Source: a virus
IMG/VR virus record: IMGVR_UViG_3300035670_000030
Location: 79,731 to 143,730 of that record
Strand: one strand, 5' to 3'
Length of the DNA stretch: 64,000 bases
The notes under the pieces are model-generated. The model made no database searches, was not told the DNA's origin, and was given only the letters and a program-made list of their open reading frames with translations. The position numbers were made by a program, and so were the translations under genes. Position 1 is the first letter of the stretch. Every line of letters begins with the position of its first letter. This document shows, piece after piece, positions 56,138 to 64,000 of the stretch.

Positions 56138-57001
56138 CTATTTAATTCTATATTCTTTGCAAATTTTTTTATATAGTGCATACGTATTTTTACGAATTTC
56201 TTTTACCTTTTTTCCATCCCACAAATGGAGTACGCCTACTTTTAAACCATAAGAATAACTAAATTGTGAATATTTAATTGGTATTAAGGTAGTATATGTT
56301 TTTAATTTCTTTTTCATCATTATCAGAAATAAAACTTGCTCAATTATGACTGGGATTGTTGCATAGGCAAGTTCATCGAATGTGGTTTTAAATTTTGTTA
56401 TTAATTCATCGCCATCTAAAAAATCTTTATGTTCTATAATACAATCAATCATTTTTTGCGCGGTTTCATTTATTATTGGAATATTATTTTCTATACAGGA
56501 TCCAAATATAGCAAAATTGACAGACATGAATTTTTGGTCTAAATCTAAATTTAATGATTTATTTAGAACATCTAAGATGACCGCGACCCCATTTTTATAA
56601 AAATCGCATCCCTTTCCAAAGTTTGAACTCCAAGGTTCATCATGGTAGGTAAAAAATGGTGCATTCTTAATTTTTTCTAAAAAAGAGTTATTTAATATAA
56701 AGAAATCAAAATCAATATGTATAAATGGACGTTTTTCCATGCTCATTGTCAAAATTTTACCAGCACTCCATACACTTCTAGGTAATTTATTAGTTATTTT
56801 ATCATCCAATAAAATTATTTCATCGTAAGGAATATTTTTTAAAAGTTCGGCTCCTATTTTATCTGTATATAATACTGTTTTCAATCCCGTATTCTTTTTG
56901 GCGTAATACTGCGAGCAAGTAGCAAATATTTTTGTATCTTCATCAGTAGCATTACTTCCAATTCTATTCCCCAAAAAACTAAATATAATAACTGGTTCCA
57001 T
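56138..57001 (-). CDS. Putative nucleotide-sugar transferase (GT-A-like)
   Basis: LYTD..G, W..GKI, PFIHIDFD (DxD) and IEQ motifs. Confidence 0.6.
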   Translation of the reverse strand: MEPVIIFSFLGNRIGSNATDEDTKIFATCSQYYAKKNTGLKTVLYTDKIGAELLKNIPYDEIILLDDKITNKLPRSVWSAGKILTMSMEKRPFIHIDFDFFILNNSFLEKIKNAPFFTYHDEPWSSNFGKGCDFYKNGVAVILDVLNKSLNLDLDQKFMSVNFAIFGSCIENNIPIINETAQKMIDCIIEHKDFLDGDELITKFKTTFDELAYATIPVIIEQVLFLIMMKKKLKTYTTLIPIKYSQFSYSYGLKVGVLHLWDGKKVKEIRKNTYALYKKICKEYRIK

Positions 57002-57044
57002 TATTTATCCTATATATTACATAAATATTCTTAAATTGTTACGG

Positions 57045-57245
57045 TTAAATTAAATTAATTAAAACAAAATACCCCGACCAAATTTCCAGATTGATTTGTT
57101 TCTTGATTAGTACAATTAGTCTATTTTTTTAAAAAAAGGTAGGGGGTACATATATATAGAAATACCCACTCTTCTATACATAAGAATAAGGATATGTATA
57201 GGAATATAAGAGAGATGGATTAAATTAAATTAATTAAAATAAAAT
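57045..57245. repeat. 26-bp AT-rich direct repeat (TTAAATTAAATTAATTAAAAYAAAAT) at the late/early junction
   Basis: Copies at 57045-57070 and 57220-57245, one mismatch. Confidence 0.85.
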
Positions 57246-57363
57246 GTCTAGAGATTGAAATTTCACCCCCCCGCCACCTAAAATTAAAACGAACGTTCGA
57301 ATTTTTTCAAAAATGGGGAGGGGTTATCAACAAAAATAATTTGCAGAATCTTAAAAAAATCGC

Positions 57364-57391
57364 TTGCTTTTCTGCCGTCCTGTGGTAGAGT
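57364..57391 (+). promoter_or_regulatory. First early sigma70-type promoter (TTGCTT-16-TAGAGT, extended -10), leaderless
   Basis: ATG lies 6 nt after the -10; upstream A-tracts. Confidence 0.75.
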
Positions 57392-57397
57392 GTAGAC

Positions 57398-57580
57398 ATG
57401 AAGAAGAAATACTACACCAGCACAGAGATCATCGAATACGCCGAACAGACTGGCGCGGTCTGCACGTTCGCCAGCCTCAACCTCCGCATCTTCAAGGGAT
57501 GGACTGCGAAGGGTAGCTATGAGGTCAAGTTCCACAGGATCGAGCCTTGCGTGTGGCAGAAAAAAATCGTCAAAAAATAA
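57398..57580 (+). CDS. Small early protein
   Basis: 60 aa, leaderless promoter. Confidence 0.7.
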   Translation: MKKKYYTSTEIIEYAEQTGAVCTFASLNLRIFKGWTAKGSYEVKFHRIEPCVWQKKIVKK

Positions 57581-57615
57581 CTTGACTTTTTAAGGATCTC
57601 TGATAGATTAAAGAC

Positions 57616-57846
57616 ATGAACACATACGATAACGAAATCATCCACAAAGGCAAAGAATACTACCTTTCGACGGAGTATGACTTTGATCACACTGATACCC
57701 TGCAACTCTCTGGCTTTGTCTTGACTGATGAAGACGGCGAAGAAATCTCGCAAGAGGCCTTCGAAGCAAACGAAGATCTTTATGATCACGTTTGCACTAT
57801 CCTTGCAAACGAAAGCGCCGTCTGCTATGGCGGCGCACCTTGCTAA
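57616..57846 (+). CDS. Small, very acidic early protein
   Basis: 76 aa with 18 D/E vs 2 K; promoter TTGACT(57582)-16-TAGATT. Confidence 0.75.
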   Translation: MNTYDNEIIHKGKEYYLSTEYDFDHTDTLQLSGFVLTDEDGEEISQEAFEANEDLYDHVCTILANESAVCYGGAPC

Positions 57847-57850
57847 CACT

Positions 57851-57937
57851 ATGACACACATCATTATGACATACATCGCAGAAGCACTCGCCGTGGTGCT
57901 CATCCTCCTGCTTGGCGTTGCGATCCTGTCGATCTAA
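57851..57937 (+). CDS. 28-aa single-TM peptide
   Basis: MTHIIMTYIAEALAVVLILLLGVAILSI*; stop codon lies inside repeat element 1. Confidence 0.55.
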   Translation: MTHIIMTYIAEALAVVLILLLGVAILSI

Positions 57938-58010
57938 GTTGTTGTAAATCAACAGCTTACACAGGCGCGCCCCGCCGCGCGCCGTAAGTCCTTGATAATG
58001 AAGCACTTAC
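57934..58010. repeat. 77-bp cassette-boundary element, copy 1
   Basis: 27-bp palindrome, 23-bp GC core, 27-bp palindrome. Confidence 0.93.
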
Positions 58011-58097
58011 AAATGTCAAGCAAAAAAGATAAAAAAAATTTTACACAATCGCAAAAAAATCCCTTGCTTTTTTCGTGCGCTGTGCTATTCTATAAAC

Positions 58098-58445
58098 ATG
58101 AAAGATAAAAAACTATTCAACGTCAACGGAACCCTCTGCAAGCTCGTCATCTCGGAGGATCACGAGGATGACTGCATCAAGCTCTGGCACGAACTCGTCA
58201 GCGTAGAGACTGGCAAAACCATCCACACCCTCTCGTGGTCGCCTTACTCCATCCCTTCAGATGAAGAAGTGCAACAGATCATCGACCTCGGTTTGCCAGA
58301 TGGATTGCGTTGGCACAACTCTCATCCCATGTCTGGGATGAACTTCTGCTCTGACATTCTCGCCATGTTCCTCGCTGGTGAGGAGCATCCCCAAGGCGGC
58401 AAGCTGGAGCTTGTGTTCCGTGTGCGTCATGCGAATGCCGCATAA
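58098..58445 (+). CDS. Early hypothetical protein
   Basis: 115 aa; promoter TTGCTT(58064)-16-TATTCT, leaderless. Confidence 0.8.
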   Translation: MKDKKLFNVNGTLCKLVISEDHEDDCIKLWHELVSVETGKTIHTLSWSPYSIPSDEEVQQIIDLGLPDGLRWHNSHPMSGMNFCSDILAMFLAGEEHPQGGKLELVFRVRHANAA

Positions 58446-58488
58446 AAAATCTCTTGCAATAAACCTCAACATCCCATATCCTAACAAT

Positions 58489-58707
58489 ATGAACATCACC
58501 AACGACCACTTCAACACGCAACCGCAATCCGACGAATATGCCAGCGAGCACGAGGAAGTGCGCGGCACGTTTGCGGCTGAACCAGCCGCAGAGCAGGAGC
58601 CGCAACCCTACGATGGGTGGGAAGGCTGCTGGCCTGGGGATGGATCGGGCATGGACGACCTCGCGGACATGCACGCGAACGAAGCCAATGACTACTACGA
58701 CGAGTAG
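58489..58707 (+). CDS. Small, very acidic early protein
   Basis: Start re-called from promoter TTGCAA(58454)-17-TATCCT; 72 aa with 19 D/E. Confidence 0.75.
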   Translation: MNITNDHFNTQPQSDEYASEHEEVRGTFAAEPAAEQEPQPYDGWEGCWPGDGSGMDDLADMHANEANDYYDE

Positions 58708-58833
58708 TGTCATAGTCGTGTCATAATTTTCCGAACGTTTCGATGCGTGTCTCCATGGCGCGGGAATAAACGAAGAGGAAACGAAGCGCCCGTGTTCAAA
58801 CGGGCGTTTCAATTTGCTGAAATTCAATGTTGC

Positions 58834-58910
58834 GTAAACCATTGATATTCAACCACTTACATGGGCGCGCGGGGCGTGCGCGCGTAAGTCCTTGATATTC
58901 AACGACTTAA
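58834..58910. repeat. 77-bp element, copy 2 (core inverted)
   Basis: Same 27/23/27 geometry; core reads GGGGCG instead of CGCCCC. Confidence 0.92.
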
Positions 58911-59034
58911 GTAGTGCCTTACGAACCCGCATGAATACTGGCTTCGCGGGTGTCAAGCTTTTTTTTGCAAAAAAATTTTCATCGAATCGAAAAAAACTGG
59001 TTGCTTTCTGCGCGTTCTGTGGTATTCTGTATAC

Positions 59035-59134
59035 ATTGATAGGACAAGAGGTTTTCCACCGAGAAGGGTTGATCGCCGGAAAAAAGGTGGAAACGTAAGC
59101 GTCCGACCGTAATGGCAAGGCCTACTCCTATCAA
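59035..59134 (+). ncRNA. Candidate structured ~100-nt ncRNA
   Basis: Promoter TTGCTT(59001)-16-TATTCT has no ATG at +1; terminal stem TTGATAGGA/TCCTATCAA; internal stem TTTCCACC/GGTGGAAA. Confidence 0.6.
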
Positions 59135-59178
59135 AACTTTTTCTTGACTCTCACCCTTAACCTGCTAAAATAATCACT

Positions 59179-59370
59179 ATGAATAGAAACTACAGAAGCT
59201 GGCGCGACGAAGAACGCGAAGCAACCCTCGACTACCCGCTGGCCGTGGATCGTGAAGATCCCGCCTACCAGCACAACCCGAACGCCTACGAGCGTGAACT
59301 TGAGCGGTTGAACCGCTTGGAGGGTTGGGAGCGTAGCCGTGGCGGTTACTACCGCCGCAGCTACCGCTGA
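59179..59370 (+). CDS. Small charged early protein
   Basis: 63 aa; promoter TTGACT(59144)-16-TAAAAT. Confidence 0.75.
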   Translation: MNRNYRSWRDEEREATLDYPLAVDREDPAYQHNPNAYERELERLNRLEGWERSRGGYYRRSYR

Positions 59371-59415
59371 AAAAAGTCGCTTGACTTTCAGCCCCATTTC
59401 AACGATACTTTTAAC

Positions 59416-59574
59416 ATGACAGAAAACACCACAACTGGCTGGCCCGAAGTCTGGAACTTCGACGAACCCCAAGACGATAACCTCACGCCCGAACAAGCGT
59501 TCGACATCCTTTTCGGCTATGCCGAAGAACGTCACCGCAACGATCCGTGCGCTCATCCCGAACCCAAACACTAA
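59416..59574 (+). CDS. 52-aa acidic early protein (not in the ORF track)
   Basis: MTENTTTGWPEVWNFDEPQDD...; promoter TTGACT(59381)-17-GATACT. Confidence 0.65.
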   Translation: MTENTTTGWPEVWNFDEPQDDNLTPEQAFDILFGYAEERHRNDPCAHPEPKH

Positions 59575-59578
59575 CACT

Positions 59579-59809
59579 ATGACACAACAAGACGGCATCA
59601 TCAAGTCGCTTGAAACCCTCATCAAGCACGAAAAAACAATCCAAGCTCAAGAGGCTTGCATCGTAGAACTGCGCGACATTCTCGCAAAAGCTCTCCACAC
59701 CATCACCATGCACGAACACAAGCTAAACCTCTTGTGTGGCGTGTCCACCACTCTCGCCGTCGAACTGACTGCGGTGAAAAACAAACAGGTTTCTTTCGGA
59801 GTCAACTAA
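59579..59809 (+). CDS. Small coiled-coil early protein
   Basis: Start re-called at MTQQDG, 4 nt after the upstream stop. Confidence 0.65.
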   Translation: MTQQDGIIKSLETLIKHEKTIQAQEACIVELRDILAKALHTITMHEHKLNLLCGVSTTLAVELTAVKNKQVSFGVN

Positions 59810-59810
59810 C

Positions 59811-59966
59811 ATGAGCAAAATCATTATGACAATCGACACGCGCCCTCTTGCGAGGGCGATTGAACGTAGCGTTCGCAAGACCACTTGCAAGCCGTCCTTC
59901 GCCATGCGTGTCAAGAAAAAATTCGCGCGCAGGGCTAAGTTTTTTCGCGGTTGGTCTGAAGAGTAA
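59811..59966 (+). CDS. 51-aa basic early protein (not in the ORF track)
   Basis: MSKIIMTIDTRPLARAIERSVRK...GWSEE*; stop codon lies inside element 3. Confidence 0.6.
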   Translation: MSKIIMTIDTRPLARAIERSVRKTTCKPSFAMRVKKKFARRAKFFRGWSEE

Positions 59967-60039
59967 AGCGTTGTAAATCAATGACTTACGGCGGCGCGCC
60001 CCGCCGCGCGGCGTAACCCATTGTAAATCAACGACTTAC
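59963..60039. repeat. 77-bp element, copy 3
   Basis: 27/23/27 geometry. Confidence 0.93.
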
Positions 60040-60051
60040 AGAATCATCTAC

Positions 60052-60067
60052 GCAAGTGCCGTGCCAA
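60052..60067 (-). promoter_or_regulatory. sigma54 (RpoN) -24/-12 consensus facing element 3
   Basis: Minus strand reads TTGGCACG-GCAC-TTGC. Confidence 0.6.
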
Positions 60068-60140
60068 GTGTGACTGTGTCATAAAAATAAAAAATAAAAA
60101 AATCTCTTGCTTTTCTGTGGCTCTGTGCTATTCTTTAAGC

Positions 60141-60320
60141 ATGAAAGATAAAGCACCACAAAAAGGCCAACTCTTCGCGGTTGGAACAAAAGTCTATCGC
60201 GTGATCCGCAACGAAGGGGACAAGACCCACGTTCACCATCACGGGCAAATGGCCCTGTTCTACACGCGTCATCTCAAACCTGTCAGCCGTGACCGAGTCG
60301 CGGAATACTTGGGAAAATAG
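60141..60320 (+). CDS. Small basic early protein (possible SH3/KOW-like barrel)
   Basis: Start re-called from promoter TTGCTT(60107)-16-TATTCT. Confidence 0.7.
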   Translation: MKDKAPQKGQLFAVGTKVYRVIRNEGDKTHVHHHGQMALFYTRHLKPVSRDRVAEYLGK

Positions 60321-60356
60321 TTTGACAATCACCACAAAACCTAACAGAATCATAAC

Positions 60357-60545
60357 ATGACTAAAAAACACTTCACCGCCATCGCTGAAATCGTAGGGAA
60401 ACGCTTGCGCGAAAAAATCACCGCGCCAATCGGAGAATACGAGGCAATCGAGTTTGTAGCTAATGACTTGGCCGCATACTTCAAAACTCAAAACTCCAGC
60501 TTTGACAAAAATCGCTTTTTGGAAGCTGTCTATACCCAGAAATAA
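60357..60545 (+). CDS. Small early protein (MTKKHF.AIA...N..FD..RFL.A type)
   Basis: Promoter TTGACA(60322)-17-CAGAAT; helical pattern seen in small phage early proteins. Confidence 0.75.
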   Translation: MTKKHFTAIAEIVGKRLREKITAPIGEYEAIEFVANDLAAYFKTQNSSFDKNRFLEAVYTQK

Positions 60546-60549
60546 TCAC

Positions 60550-60729
60550 ATGAAAAAATACATCACATTCGACCGCATTGCCTATGCAATGTCTCTCGCA
60601 ACCTTCATCTTCATCGCTTGCACACTCTGTGCCGCTTGCGTGAACCTCCACAACAGAACAACCCAAAACCAAAAACAAATGCACGAAGAAGTTCGCGCCA
60701 TGTTTGCTCACGTTGAAAAACCTCTATGA
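60550..60729 (+). CDS. Small single-TM early protein
   Basis: MKKYITFDRIAYAMSLATFIFIACTLCAAC... Confidence 0.6.
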   Translation: MKKYITFDRIAYAMSLATFIFIACTLCAACVNLHNRTTQNQKQMHEEVRAMFAHVEKPL

Positions 60730-60926
60730 TCACGCCCAACATACAAAAAGCCCTCGAATCAAACGGAGTCCGCTTCTATGCAAAAGACTTTCTCATGGAA
60801 GGCTTGCGGAAAGACTGCGTTGACGCCGTGCATGATGCTCAACTTGTTTATGAGTTGCTGAAAGAACGCATGGAAATAATCCTTGACCTTAAACCCAAAT
60901 TCCCCGAAAATCAAAACAATGAGTAA
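60726..60926 (+). CDS. Small early protein
   Basis: 66 aa; ATGA overlap with the upstream gene. Confidence 0.65.
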   Translation: MITPNIQKALESNGVRFYAKDFLMEGLRKDCVDAVHDAQLVYELLKERMEIILDLKPKFPENQNNE

Positions 60927-61110
60927 AGAACAAGTCAAAGCCGTGTGCGACTTCTCGCACGATGTCATAATGAAAGTCAAGAAGCTCGTCGGCATCAAGC
61001 CGCGCCAAGAGTCGCTTCTGTGTCATAGTCTGTGGCACCTCAACACCTCCAACTGGGTTGAGCGCATCACGGCAAATGGCATCATTGATCGCTACATCGT
61101 AAAGCACTAA
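60919..61110 (+). CDS. Small early protein
   Basis: Start re-called from promoter TTGACC(60883)-17-GAAAAT; stop codon lies inside element 4. Confidence 0.65.
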   Translation: MSKEQVKAVCDFSHDVIMKVKKLVGIKPRQESLLCHSLWHLNTSNWVERITANGIIDRYIVKH

Positions 61111-61175
61111 TAATTAAGCACTTAGGGCGGCGCGCCCCCCGTGCGAATGTAAGTCGTTGTAAATCAAACACTTAT
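61099..61175. repeat. 77-bp element, copy 4
   Basis: 27/23/27 geometry, more degenerate. Confidence 0.88.
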
Positions 61176-61293
61176 GAATAGGTGCAAATACTATCATACC
61201 AGTGAGAGAATGTCAAGAATAAAAATGCAAAAAATAAAAATAATTTTCTAAAAAATCTCTTGCGTTTTTTCATATGTGTGCTATCTTGTATTC

Positions 61294-61515
61294 ATGTTAA
61301 GTAAAACACCACAAGTGGGAGATAAGATCATGTATCGGTTCTCCCAAGGCAAAAAGAAATACCCCGCAACAATCATCGCCATCGAGGGCGAACACTGCGT
61401 GTTCACGCTGGATGGTGACTCTTACGATCCTACGCCCACCAAGTGGCCTATGTGGCATGGCCTCCTCTACGACTACGACGAGACCCTTGTCAAGAAAAAA
61501 AGAAAGTGGTGCTAA
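61294..61515 (+). CDS. Small early protein (SH3/Tudor-like pattern)
   Basis: Start re-called from promoter TTGCGT(61260)-16-TATCTT; stop codon lies inside element 5. Confidence 0.7.
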   Translation: MLSKTPQVGDKIMYRFSQGKKKYPATIIAIEGEHCVFTLDGDSYDPTPTKWPMWHGLLYDYDETLVKKKRKWC

Positions 61516-61588
61516 ACCACTAATAATCAAACACTTACGCTAGCGCGCCCCGCCGCGCGGCGTAACTCGTTGAAAATCAACAACTTAG
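61512..61588. repeat. 77-bp element, copy 5
   Basis: 27/23/27 geometry. Confidence 0.92.
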
Positions 61589-61600
61589 GCATTATGACAT

Positions 61601-61616
61601 TCAGAAAGCGTGCCAA
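61601..61616 (-). promoter_or_regulatory. sigma54-like motif facing element 5 (degenerate -12)
   Basis: Minus strand reads TTGGCACG-CTTT-CTGA. Confidence 0.4.
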
Positions 61617-61699
61617 GTGTGACTACCAAGCACAAAAAAATATTTTTTAAATCGCAAAAAATTCCTTGCATTTTTGGGAACCTGTGGTATTCTTACAAC

Positions 61700-61939
61700 A
61701 TGAACATCACCAAAGAAGAACTCCGTGACTCTCTCGTTAACGCTCGCGCCGCCTTGGCTCTGCAAGTCCGCGACCATTACAAACACCGCAACGGCTTTTG
61801 CGGAAAATCTTTTCGCGGTATGATCCGCGAAAATCTCCGCGCTTTGCGCTTGTTGGGTAATCTCGAAACCATCGACGCGAAAGTCTACACGTTCGACGCT
61901 CGCATCTTGGGTCGTGTCAAAAAAGCTCTTGCCAAGTAA
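61700..61939 (+). CDS. Small basic early protein
   Basis: Start re-called from promoter TTGCAT(61666)-16-TATTCT. Confidence 0.7.
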   Translation: MNITKEELRDSLVNARAALALQVRDHYKHRNGFCGKSFRGMIRENLRALRLLGNLETIDAKVYTFDARILGRVKKALAK

Positions 61940-61963
61940 AGCAAACTCTGACAAAATCACCAC

Positions 61964-62647
61964 ATGAAACTACTAAGCACCAATAACACCAAAATCAAAA
62001 AAGGCGAAAAACTCGGCTGGCGCACCTACGGCTTGTCGCTTTCTCCCGCTGGCAAGTCTGGAAAACAATTCTGTCCGCATCGTTCGGCTGGCTGTGAGTT
62101 TGCCTGTCTCGACACTTCGGGCATGGGCATTTTCTCAAACGTGCAAGACGCTCGCCTTGCAAAGTCGCGTTTCTTCATTGATAGCCGCAACGATTTTCTC
62201 GCACAGTTGCATAAAGAATTGCACAACGCTGAAAAGTGGAGCGCAAAAAATCAAATGCCCGTTGCTTGCCGTCCGAATGTCCTTTCTGACCTTCCTTTCC
62301 ATAAGCTCATCGACATGGCACGCTTTCCATCAATCCAGTTTTACGATTACACGCCGAACCTTCAACGCATGATGCAGTTTCTGAATGGCGAACTACCGAA
62401 AAATTACCATCTGACTTTTTCGCGCAAAGAGGATAATCAGCATCGTGTTCATGCGGTTGTTGCCGCTGGTGGCAACGTGGCGGTTGTCTTTAATGAGTTG
62501 CCCGAAACCTATCTCGGCAAGCCTGTCATAAACGGAGACGAAAGCGACTTGCGTTTTCTCGACCCGCAAGGCGTCATCGTCGGACTCAAAGCAAAGGGCA
62601 AAGCTCTAAAAGATCAGTCTGGATTCGTGGTGCAAGTTGGTGTATAA
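61964..62647 (+). CDS. Gp88-like phage protein (Cys-containing)
   Basis: C....S.GC...CL..SG.G, R.NVLSD, QFYDYT, NYHLTFS and GDESDLRF.D motifs; promoter TTGCCA(61929)-17-CAAAAT. Confidence 0.75.
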   Translation: MKLLSTNNTKIKKGEKLGWRTYGLSLSPAGKSGKQFCPHRSAGCEFACLDTSGMGIFSNVQDARLAKSRFFIDSRNDFLAQLHKELHNAEKWSAKNQMPVACRPNVLSDLPFHKLIDMARFPSIQFYDYTPNLQRMMQFLNGELPKNYHLTFSRKEDNQHRVHAVVAAGGNVAVVFNELPETYLGKPVINGDESDLRFLDPQGVIVGLKAKGKALKDQSGFVVQVGV

Positions 62648-62656
62648 TGAGCAACT

Positions 62657-62728
62657 ATGACAATCCTAACCTTGCTCGCTGTGTGTGGCTTGTGTGCTTT
62701 TGCAATTTATAACAACGAAAAAAAATGA
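62657..62728 (+). CDS. 23-aa hydrophobic peptide
   Basis: MTILTLLAVCGLCAFAIYNNEKK*; ATGA-coupled to the next ORF. Confidence 0.4.
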   Translation: MTILTLLAVCGLCAFAIYNNEKK

Positions 62729-62883
62729 CCTTCAATCTAATCGCACGAAAAAATCTGTTTCGCTTGTCTGAATACTTTTTCCACTTGGCTCTGTGGTGGG
62801 AACGCGCTGGCGTTATGACACTCTCTAACGGGTTTGTCATAGCGTGGGAGTATTGCCTCGACGCACGCGATAAGTTGAGATAA
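62725..62883 (+). CDS. 52-aa early protein (not in the ORF track)
   Basis: MTFNLIARKNLFRLSEYFFHLALWW...DKLR*; stop codon ends 1 nt before element 6. Confidence 0.6.
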   Translation: MTFNLIARKNLFRLSEYFFHLALWWERAGVMTLSNGFVIAWEYCLDARDKLR

Positions 62884-62884
62884 C

Positions 62885-62961
62885 GTAAAGCGTTGATAAT
62901 CAACGACTTACGGCGGCGCGCCCCGCCGCGCTGCGCAAGTGCTTGATATTCAATGACTTAC
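62885..62961. repeat. 77-bp element, copy 6
   Basis: 27/23/27 geometry. Confidence 0.93.
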
Positions 62962-62973
62962 GCAATATGCTAC

Positions 62974-62989
62974 GCAGGAAGCGTGCCAA
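62974..62989 (-). promoter_or_regulatory. sigma54 -24/-12-like motif facing element 6
   Basis: Minus strand reads TTGGCACG-CTTC-CTGC. Confidence 0.55.
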
Positions 62990-63090
62990 CATAGGCTTAA
63001 ACGAGCGTTTGAAAATTCGTCAACAAAAATAGTTTCTAAAAATGCAAAAAAAATCGTTGCACTCTCATGCCCTGCTGCTATTCTTTACCC

Positions 63091-63225
63091 ATGCAAGCGA
63101 ACTCCATCATCAACGACGACTTCAACACGCAAATCCAAAGCGACGAATTCGCTTCGGAATATAATGCTTGGCTCGACGAGCAGGAACTGCAATACTGGCG
63201 CGAAATCGAAGCGAAAGGAAACTAG
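63091..63225 (+). CDS. 44-aa acidic protein, paralogous to the N-terminus of 58489-58707
   Basis: NDDFNTQIQSDEFASE vs NDHFNTQPQSDEYASE; promoter TTGCAC(63057)-16-TATTCT. Confidence 0.7.
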   Translation: MQANSIINDDFNTQIQSDEFASEYNAWLDEQELQYWREIEAKGN

Positions 63226-63229
63226 TTTT

Positions 63230-63421
63230 ATGACAAACACAAACCCACTGGAAGGCTTCGTCTCCGTTTGCTGCGGAGCCGAACACGACATCAACGCCGA
63301 ATACCATATGCTCAACGAAAGCATCGTGGGCGGCTGCTCGGTCTGCGGACGTTACTCGGAGTTTGACATCTTTGAGAACTTCGTAGAAAATTCTCTTGAC
63401 CTCGAAACCTCTAACCTCTAA
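63230..63421 (+). CDS. Small acidic Zn-finger-like protein
   Basis: SVCCGA...GCSVCG; start re-called at MTNTNP. Confidence 0.65.
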   Translation: MTNTNPLEGFVSVCCGAEHDINAEYHMLNESIVGGCSVCGRYSEFDIFENFVENSLDLETSNL

Positions 63422-63433
63422 TCTCTCAACTCT

Positions 63434-63880
63434 ATGAACCAAGCAAACATCGTAATCAGCGCATACGGCAACGGCATCGCTGTCGGACTCAACGGAACCA
63501 AAGAAGAAATCGAACGCACGTTCAATCGCTTCTTTAACTGGGGCGCAACTGGCATCGGTGAACTCGGCAGTTACTTGCACGAACTCTCTGACAACTTCGC
63601 TTACTTCCTCTCGACGGAAGCGGATATGCTTCGCGCTATGACATACGAAACTATGACACGCTGGCAAGACTCACCTGTGAGCGAACAATACAAAGCGCGT
63701 CCGCGCTTCCACAAGAAACCGAACGGCAAAAAGTTTCGCGCTGACGCAGAGCAAGCTGCGCGTGACGAATACGACTCGTTCCCACGCGAGAGCTTCATGC
63801 TGTTCGCTAAAACTCCCACTCATATCTATCAGCAACTCGATGGAGGCGCGCCCGATTGGGTGAGCGAGACAGAGGACTAA
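63434..63880 (+). CDS. Early hypothetical protein
   Basis: 148 aa; promoter TTGACC(63396)-17-TAATCT. Confidence 0.75.
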   Translation: MNQANIVISAYGNGIAVGLNGTKEEIERTFNRFFNWGATGIGELGSYLHELSDNFAYFLSTEADMLRAMTYETMTRWQDSPVSEQYKARPRFHKKPNGKKFRADAEQAARDEYDSFPRESFMLFAKTPTHIYQQLDGGAPDWVSETED

Positions 63881-63953
63881 TCTCTGTCATAGTCGTGTCA
63901 TAGTAAACGCTCGTGCAAACGGGCGTTTTACTTTTGCCCAAAATGAATGTGTT

Positions 63954-64000
63954 GTAAAGCGTTGAAGATCAAGCACTTACGGGCGCGCGCCCCGCCGCCC
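63954..64000. repeat. 77-bp element, copy 7 (truncated by the window end)
   Basis: Left palindrome 63954-63980 plus GC core. Confidence 0.9.

Follow-up and report, generated by a model that had tools for sequence, protein, structure and literature searches.

The closest described analogues of the element reported here are the promoter-early stem-loop (PeSL) cassettes of T4-type phages and the IHF-binding BIME-1/RIB repeats of Escherichia coli. PeSL cassettes recur in the intergenic spaces of a plastic early region, where an upstream stop codon is followed by a GC-rich element, an AT-rich upstream region and a strong sigma70-like promoter, and they lie at rearrangement and indel junctions between relatives (PMC2839356, PMC4122927). 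BIME-1 (RIB-RIP) places a site for integration host factor (IHF) between two REP palindromes (PMC3333891 and its ref. 6); these repeats are extragenic, sit at the 3' ends of transcription units and join GC-rich palindromic DNA to the IHF consensus, and an insulator or terminator role has been proposed for them, as it is for the phage module. The phage module lies in the early region of IMG/VR virus record IMGVR_UViG_3300035670_000030. We analysed positions 79,731 to 143,730, the last 64 kb of this 143.7-kb record (hereafter the window; positions are those of the window unless prefixed). Its early, high-GC block holds seven 77-bp modules, each built of two 27-bp palindromic arms on either side of a 23-bp GC core. 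The fit of the arms to the IHF binding site is unusually good. The explanation that we favour (probability about 0.4) regards the arms as symmetrised IHF/HU-type sites that would be bound by a host protein, and the modules probably serve as protein-bound boundary markers between gene cassettes.

The module is set apart from both PeSL and BIME-1/RIB by its paired palindromes and its leaderless promoters. PeSLs have a simple stem-loop, lack paired 27-bp palindromes and carry a Shine-Dalgarno sequence ahead of the start codon, whereas the phage elements are followed by leaderless starts and their GC core is not demonstrably a hairpin. Relative to BIME-1 the module is inside-out, with IHF-like sites flanking the GC segment; it is found in a phage and not in a bacterial chromosome, and we saw no RAYT/REP relationship. 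The first-step-transfer DNA of phage T5 is likewise an early region in which promoters for the host polymerase are densely packed and conserved arrays of palindromes and host-factor-like boxes occur (bioRxiv 10.1101/866236). Unlike the modules here, which are dispersed between cassettes, the repeats of T5 consist of paired DnaA boxes within a single untranslated block, and first entry into the cell is not a known feature of the present region.

Homologues of the GP88 gene in the window, together with pattern scans, gave about 40 related viral contigs, from which we collected 109 non-redundant elements (218 arms). The family arm consensus is GTAA-N4-TTGA-WAW-TCAA-ssAC-TTAC. Counting from the first base of the left arm, WATCAR occupies positions 14-19 and is mirrored at 14-9, and TTR is located 4 bp downstream of WATCAR. 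Position 14 is A or T in 103 of the 109 elements, T24 and T25 are invariant, position 26 is only ever A (97) or G (12), position 76 is A or G only, and position 69 is A/G. At least one perfect WATCARNNNNTTR is present in 150/218 arms, most often in the inner-left half-site (73/109) and less often in the outer-right (45/109), inner-right (31/109) and outer-left (20/109) ones; the TT (9-10) and AA (18-19) steps are 9 bp apart in 150/218 arms. It has previously been established that an IHF site has two proline kinks 9 bp apart, with WATCAR between them and TTR in the flank (PMC1874591; bioRxiv 10.1101/382655). From this geometry and the 9-bp TT/AA steps of the arm, the dyad of the arm would correspond to the pseudo-dyad of the dimer. 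The arm thus resembles a canonical IHF site of the lambda H'/H1 type in having WATCAR and TTR at the right spacing, TT/AA steps 9 bp apart and the W/R degeneracy, and its length (27 bp plus flanks) fits a footprint of about 35 bp. It differs in that the consensus is mirrored on both halves, where a canonical site pairs the consensus with an A-tract half, and in that the arms have additional conserved bases at A22, C23 and C27 and occur in pairs around a GC spacer.

The seven elements of the window are as follows, with no strand assigned to any of them.

57934-58010: element 1, left arm 57934-57960, GC core 57961-57983, right arm 57984-58010
58834-58910: element 2, arms 58834-58860 and 58884-58910, core 58861-58883
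59963-60039: element 3, arms 59963-59989 and 60013-60039, core 59990-60012
61099-61175: element 4, left arm 61099-61125, right arm 61149-61175
61512-61588: element 5, arms 61512-61538 and 61562-61588, core 61539-61561
62885-62961: element 6, arms 62885-62911 (consensus on both strands) and 62935-62961, core 62912-62934
63954-64000: element 7, left arm 63954-63980 and the start of the core, cut by the contig end

An initial annotation of this DNA had described each arm as a head-to-head pair of IHF boxes. Its counts were borne out: a perfect WATCAANNNNTTR is present in 11 of the 13 window arms (base-shuffled arms give 0.023 matching arms), 12 of the 26 half-sites are perfect while seven carry one mismatch and seven carry two, the example that it cited (AATCAACGACTTA) lies at 60026-60038, arm 6L (62885-62911) carries a match on each strand, and in all six complete copies the right arm begins 50 bp after the start of the left one. 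In element 1 the perfect consensus falls on the top strand of the left arm and the bottom strand of the right arm; in element 4 the left arm is degenerate, with no perfect consensus, and the core has partly decayed. Across the whole window WATCAANNNNTTR has 24 matches against 10.9 +/- 3.2 expected, and 12 of the 24 are inside arms. The enrichment in the arms is real, and it arises because the arms are all copies of a single repeat, and the consensus of this family agrees with the motif. What did not survive from that description is the pairing of boxes. The arm consensus agrees with the IHF motif even at its degenerate positions, but the arm is one dyad-symmetric site: the two apparent boxes share their kink steps and a footprint of about 35 bp, and so cannot bind two IHF molecules. 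Each arm would therefore be better read as one symmetrised site for one IHF/HU-type dimer. With WATCAR-N4-TTR mirrored about the dyad and the kink steps 9 bp apart, a single dimeric, minor-groove-bending protein of the IHF/HU (DNABII) type would occupy the double-stranded arm in either orientation.

The cores behave differently from the arms. They are homogeneous within a genome and lineage-specific in sequence and length between lineages, the types seen including GCGCGCCCCGCCGCGC, CCGGGCCGGGCCGCCGGGC, CCGGGCCTGGCC, the 15-bp GGGGCCCWGGGCCCG and an AT-rich 23-mer. Most cores are C-rich on the sense strand, and inverted cores are stably inherited: the core of element 2 is inverted (G-rich) relative to the other copies, and the same inversion is present at the orthologous site in relatives L033 and L023. 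The initial annotation had also proposed that two bends loop out the core. This geometry is not conserved in the family, where arms are 50 bp apart in 129 distinct pairs and spacings of 42, 44, 49, 51, 53 and 60 bp also occur (range 42-60 bp), and where some arms are in tandem without a core. In one lineage, core-less tandem arms are 34-35 bp apart, about one IHF footprint. That arms are conserved over lineages with wholly different cores, and occur as core-less tandem arms, fits a conserved trans-acting factor on single arms. Tandem arrays were seen at L075:2972-3120, L083:12192-12650 and L088:2699-3100, with 34-35-bp spacing or as 170-bp periodic units with 33-bp hairpin spacers.

Among 61 cases the stop codon of the upstream open reading frame (ORF) is inside the left arm in 30, often as the TAA of the arm itself, and is no more than 4 nt away in 22 more (52/61). 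In the window, the left arm of element 1 contains the stop TAA (57935-57937), the GTAA of the element 3 arm provides the stop of ORF 59811-59966, and the CTAA of the element 5 arm holds that of ORF 61276-61515. In relatives, phage genes for tRNA-Cys and tRNA-Met reach with their 3' acceptor ends into the outer half of an element's left arm (L062:9322-9410, L062:13209-13310, L064:8348-8440). After each window element an AT-rich stretch is followed by a sigma70-like promoter 52-95 bp past the right arm.

58064-58100, plus strand: sigma70-like promoter (TTGCTT, TGnTATTCT), predicted start at the A of the ATG at 58098
57364-57400, 59001-59028, 60107-60143, 61260-61296, 61666-61702 and 63057-63093, plus strand: equivalent sigma70-like promoters

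We found 14 such promoter-plus-ATG arrangements on the plus strand (57364-63093), compared with 0.65 in shuffles, with the ATG 5-7 nt (mostly 6) past the -10 hexamer. This placement in 14 promoters suggests that about 13 of the roughly 21 early genes are leaderless.

Together, these features would be accounted for by a boundary module in which two arms flank a lineage-homogenised GC-rich spacer, placed between one early unit, whose stop codon or tRNA 3' end it directly follows, and the next, whose strong sigma70-type promoter lies 50-100 bp further on. The GC segment, stiff and hard to melt, would be framed by two sharp bends that insulate neighbouring, very active early units; such insulation could block read-through or the spread of supercoiling, and the bends may shape the DNA upstream of the next promoter. 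If the arms do bind IHF-type proteins, they would offer a clear natural case of a symmetrised DNABII site and a phage counterpart of the bacterial IHF-binding extragenic repeats, whose function is unsettled, and with about 15 near-identical modules between defined promoters the case is a tractable one. We regard as a long shot the broader proposal of a new phage 'chromatin boundary' class, in which paired dyad-symmetric, high-affinity DNABII sites around a GC clamp, repeated about 15 times, would recruit a host bending protein onto the first-expressed 16 kb, insulate leaderless cassettes topologically and possibly sequester IHF from host processes. Roles in IHF titration, CRISPR adaptation and sigma54 promoters that had been suggested from the initial annotation were not supported.

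Several observations weigh against binding by an IHF-type protein. Bases that IHF leaves free are conserved, with A22, C23 and C27 (C27/G1) at 1.4-1.7 bits; the A-tract half of the canonical asymmetric site is missing and replaced by the mirrored consensus; and the inner half-sites hold about 4-5 bits more than the outer ones, which a simple symmetric dimer does not predict. Arm-to-arm spacing differs by lineage. Fixed arm-promoter phasing was rejected, as the varying distance shows no activator-like phasing. The inner 'ss' dinucleotides (20-21/57-58) are almost never complementary: they are the same in 4 of 109 elements, where 21.9 would be expected. Such an enforced mismatch limits how far the two arms can pair and suggests that secondary structure is under some constraint. 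Finally, a Shine-Dalgarno sequence precedes 13% of 119 long ORFs (G000:C1:1-137000), compared with 5% in the background, and A is enriched at -3; near-absent Shine-Dalgarno sequences and many leaderless genes fit several phyla, some of which are without classical IHF.

The conservation of A22, C23 and C27, bases outside the IHF consensus of the kind that the initial annotation had named as counting against its own reading, keeps another dimeric protein as a live, if less likely, rival. The arms would then be operators for a different sequence-specific dimer, which could be a host transcription factor or a phage regulator (brought in with the virion or synthesised after infection) and which reads the full palindrome including ACTTAC/GTAAGT; the IHF match would be coincidental, and bound dimers would act as roadblocks or as shut-off or boundary factors of the early region. 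An information content of 12-18 bits per half-site with dyad symmetry is typical of a homodimer operator, and such a protein would also suit arms that are found singly and in tandem and stay constant while cores are lineage-specific. Set against this, the conserved 4-bp blocks are 7-8 bp apart, which suits minor-groove/DNABII contacts better than paired helix-turn-helix motifs, and a chance fit to a 16-bit motif with the right degeneracies and kink spacing is improbable; our estimate is about 5e-4 when IHF alone is considered and a few per cent over all well-known motifs. The consensuses of FNR, Fur, DnaA boxes, Ter and CtrA appear not to fit the arms in spacing or at the variable positions. 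A search of 20 early-region ORFs (17 small and three larger) against Pfam revealed no recognisable DNA-binding domain, and most early ORFs have no recognisable domain of any kind.

Candidate binders encoded by the phages themselves were also sought. Neither the record nor three complete relatives yielded a gene of the HU/IHF family (PF00216), and a tyrosine recombinase (PF00589) is absent from the four genomes, in a search whose control matched all 14 reference genomes; phage-encoded versions of both were rejected. A DNABII-type binder would therefore have to come from the host, and host supply is what the favoured reading takes to be most likely. As to the host, two proteobacterial metagenome-assembled genomes (MAGs) with which short element contigs co-bin encode IHF-alpha, binning being weak evidence, and the closest GP88 homologues in cultured phages are mostly from phages of Proteobacteria. 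The GP88 product (PF17338) was itself rejected as a co-occurring binder, as homologues in pelagiphage-like contigs and in contig L032 lack arms. The GP88 gene of the window lies at 61964-62647; an 87%-identical copy is present in L032, which is unrelated, uniformly 47% GC and without arms, and homologues at 40-48% are located at the left ends of pelagiphage genomes. This distribution suggests horizontal transfer of early genes.

Elements that follow stop codons and, in relatives, overlap the 3' ends of tRNA-Cys and tRNA-Met could also work as RNA. A hairpin formed by ACUUAC, the core and GUAAGU, or a longer imperfect stem of the two arms, would act as a terminator, as a stabiliser of the upstream mRNA, or as a site cut by an RNase III-like activity to release mRNAs and tRNA 3' ends. 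PeSL stem-loops do terminate transcription (PMC2839356), the inner half-sites are the most conserved, the enforced 2-nt mismatch resembles the internal loop of a processing site, and the 15-nt and AT-rich core types alone form clear hairpins. We nevertheless consider an RNA function distinctly improbable. Across the 109 elements there is no base-pair covariation, the intra-arm and inter-arm Watson-Crick frequencies at variable positions being those expected from composition, and hairpins of the arm or of the whole element were rejected on this ground; the arms are conserved as sequence and not as pairing, which speaks for recognition of the DNA by a protein. For the common 23-nt GC cores the folding energy, about -9 kcal/mol, does not surpass that of shuffles (mean z -0.28), so a proven hairpin was rejected for this type. 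The loops (13-15) vary while the stems are conserved in sequence, the opposite of a protein-recognised RNA hairpin, and core orientation can invert and still be maintained. There is no U-tract after the core (51-60 reads GTAAGTssTT, and 78-85 is not T-rich), and separate canonical terminators precede elements 2 and 7, that of element 7 at 63905-63928. A terminator scan in element 6 gave short stems at arm 6L (minus strand) and at 62928-62942 (plus strand, core/right-arm junction), neither of which is the core hairpin.

Relatives differ in the order of early cassettes. Compared with relative G001 the order is permuted, with homology breakpoints at 57620/60140, 61174 and 58022, located at element ends and promoter-ATG junctions; the breakpoint at 61174 is the right-arm end of element 4. 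Permutation at element boundaries, cores that evolve in concert within genomes and the inverted-repeat architecture of the arms would all be expected of repeats that are chiefly selfish or recombinational (like MITEs, REPINs or attC sites) and that owe their persistence to spread or cassette exchange, with no function involving a host factor. This is very improbable: no spanning 'empty site' was found for any of the 109 elements among the relatives fetched, on which basis MITE-like mobility was rejected, no target-site duplication is visible at their flanks, the four genomes have no tyrosine recombinase gene, and specific arm positions are under strong purifying selection over very divergent lineages. 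If the modules are protein-bound boundaries, their repetition would also make them recombination joints at which relatives exchange cassettes. The element family marks exchange points of early host-takeover cassettes and, being widespread, may help explain how early regions stay modular.

The modules are confined to a compositional island. GC content rises from about 30% to about 48% at about 57,300 (boundary 57250-57400) and stays high to the end of the window; the early region is a block of about 16 kb at 48% GC within a 30% GC genome. In three complete relatives (166.5, 170.5 and 178.5 kb), a block of about 16 kb at 43-53% GC carries all matches to an 18-bp arm pattern scanned with at most one mismatch, and a control pattern had zero matches. 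The genome-wide scan proposed in the initial annotation thus gave hits restricted to the early region in these relatives, but in the record itself one match falls outside it (G000:C1:16183-16200). Chimeric assembly as the cause of the GC jump was rejected, as the same element-bearing block sits inside the three complete relatives; there it is internal, with an AT-rich repeat region bounding one side and a tRNA cluster the other. Possible causes of the island are that the early genes were adapted to, or acquired from, a pool of about 47% GC such as that of contig L032, or that they evade the silencing of AT-rich DNA.

The element family is widespread in uncultured phages of about 170 kb, and none was found in cultured phages. 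The phage is little like cultured ones: one structural protein has no match in 50,697 phage records, and 8/10 large phage proteins match no PHROG family. In bacterial genomes, true elements occur only on short contigs binned into MAGs, and longer MAG contigs are without arms; a match in Fulvivirga looks like chance. The element-bearing contigs of 1-4 kb (L068, L071, L069) were binned as Alphaproteobacteria, Thiobacillus and Oscillospiraceae, and are probably phage fragments broken at repeats and mis-binned.

A further box follows some of the elements at a fixed offset.

60052-60067, also 61601-61616 and 62974-62989, minus strand: GCAA-N5-GTGCCAA box, offset +13 after the element

In the family, GTGCCAA is present at +22..+28 in 52/109 elements and the fuller motif at offset 12 in 23/107 (about 22%). 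Read on the minus strand, the box is TGGCAC-N5-TTGC, which resembles a sigma54 promoter directed into the element. Such a promoter would have the arms downstream of it and not at the usual position of IHF, and a search for a phage-encoded sigma54 activator gave weak generic AAA+ matches only.

No known RNA family was found in 57000-64000. The promoter after element 2 has no ATG and is followed by a stretch of about 100 nt (59036-59135) closed by UUGAUAGGA/UCCUAUCAA. This stretch had no match in Rfam and a fold z-score of -1.0; it is 91% conserved in relative L035, compared with about 78% for neighbouring genes, and may be a small RNA. The non-coding DNA immediately upstream of the first early promoter contains two 26-bp direct repeats made of A and T only (TTAAATTAAATTAATTAAAA...), 175 bp apart, at 57045-57070 and 57220-57245.

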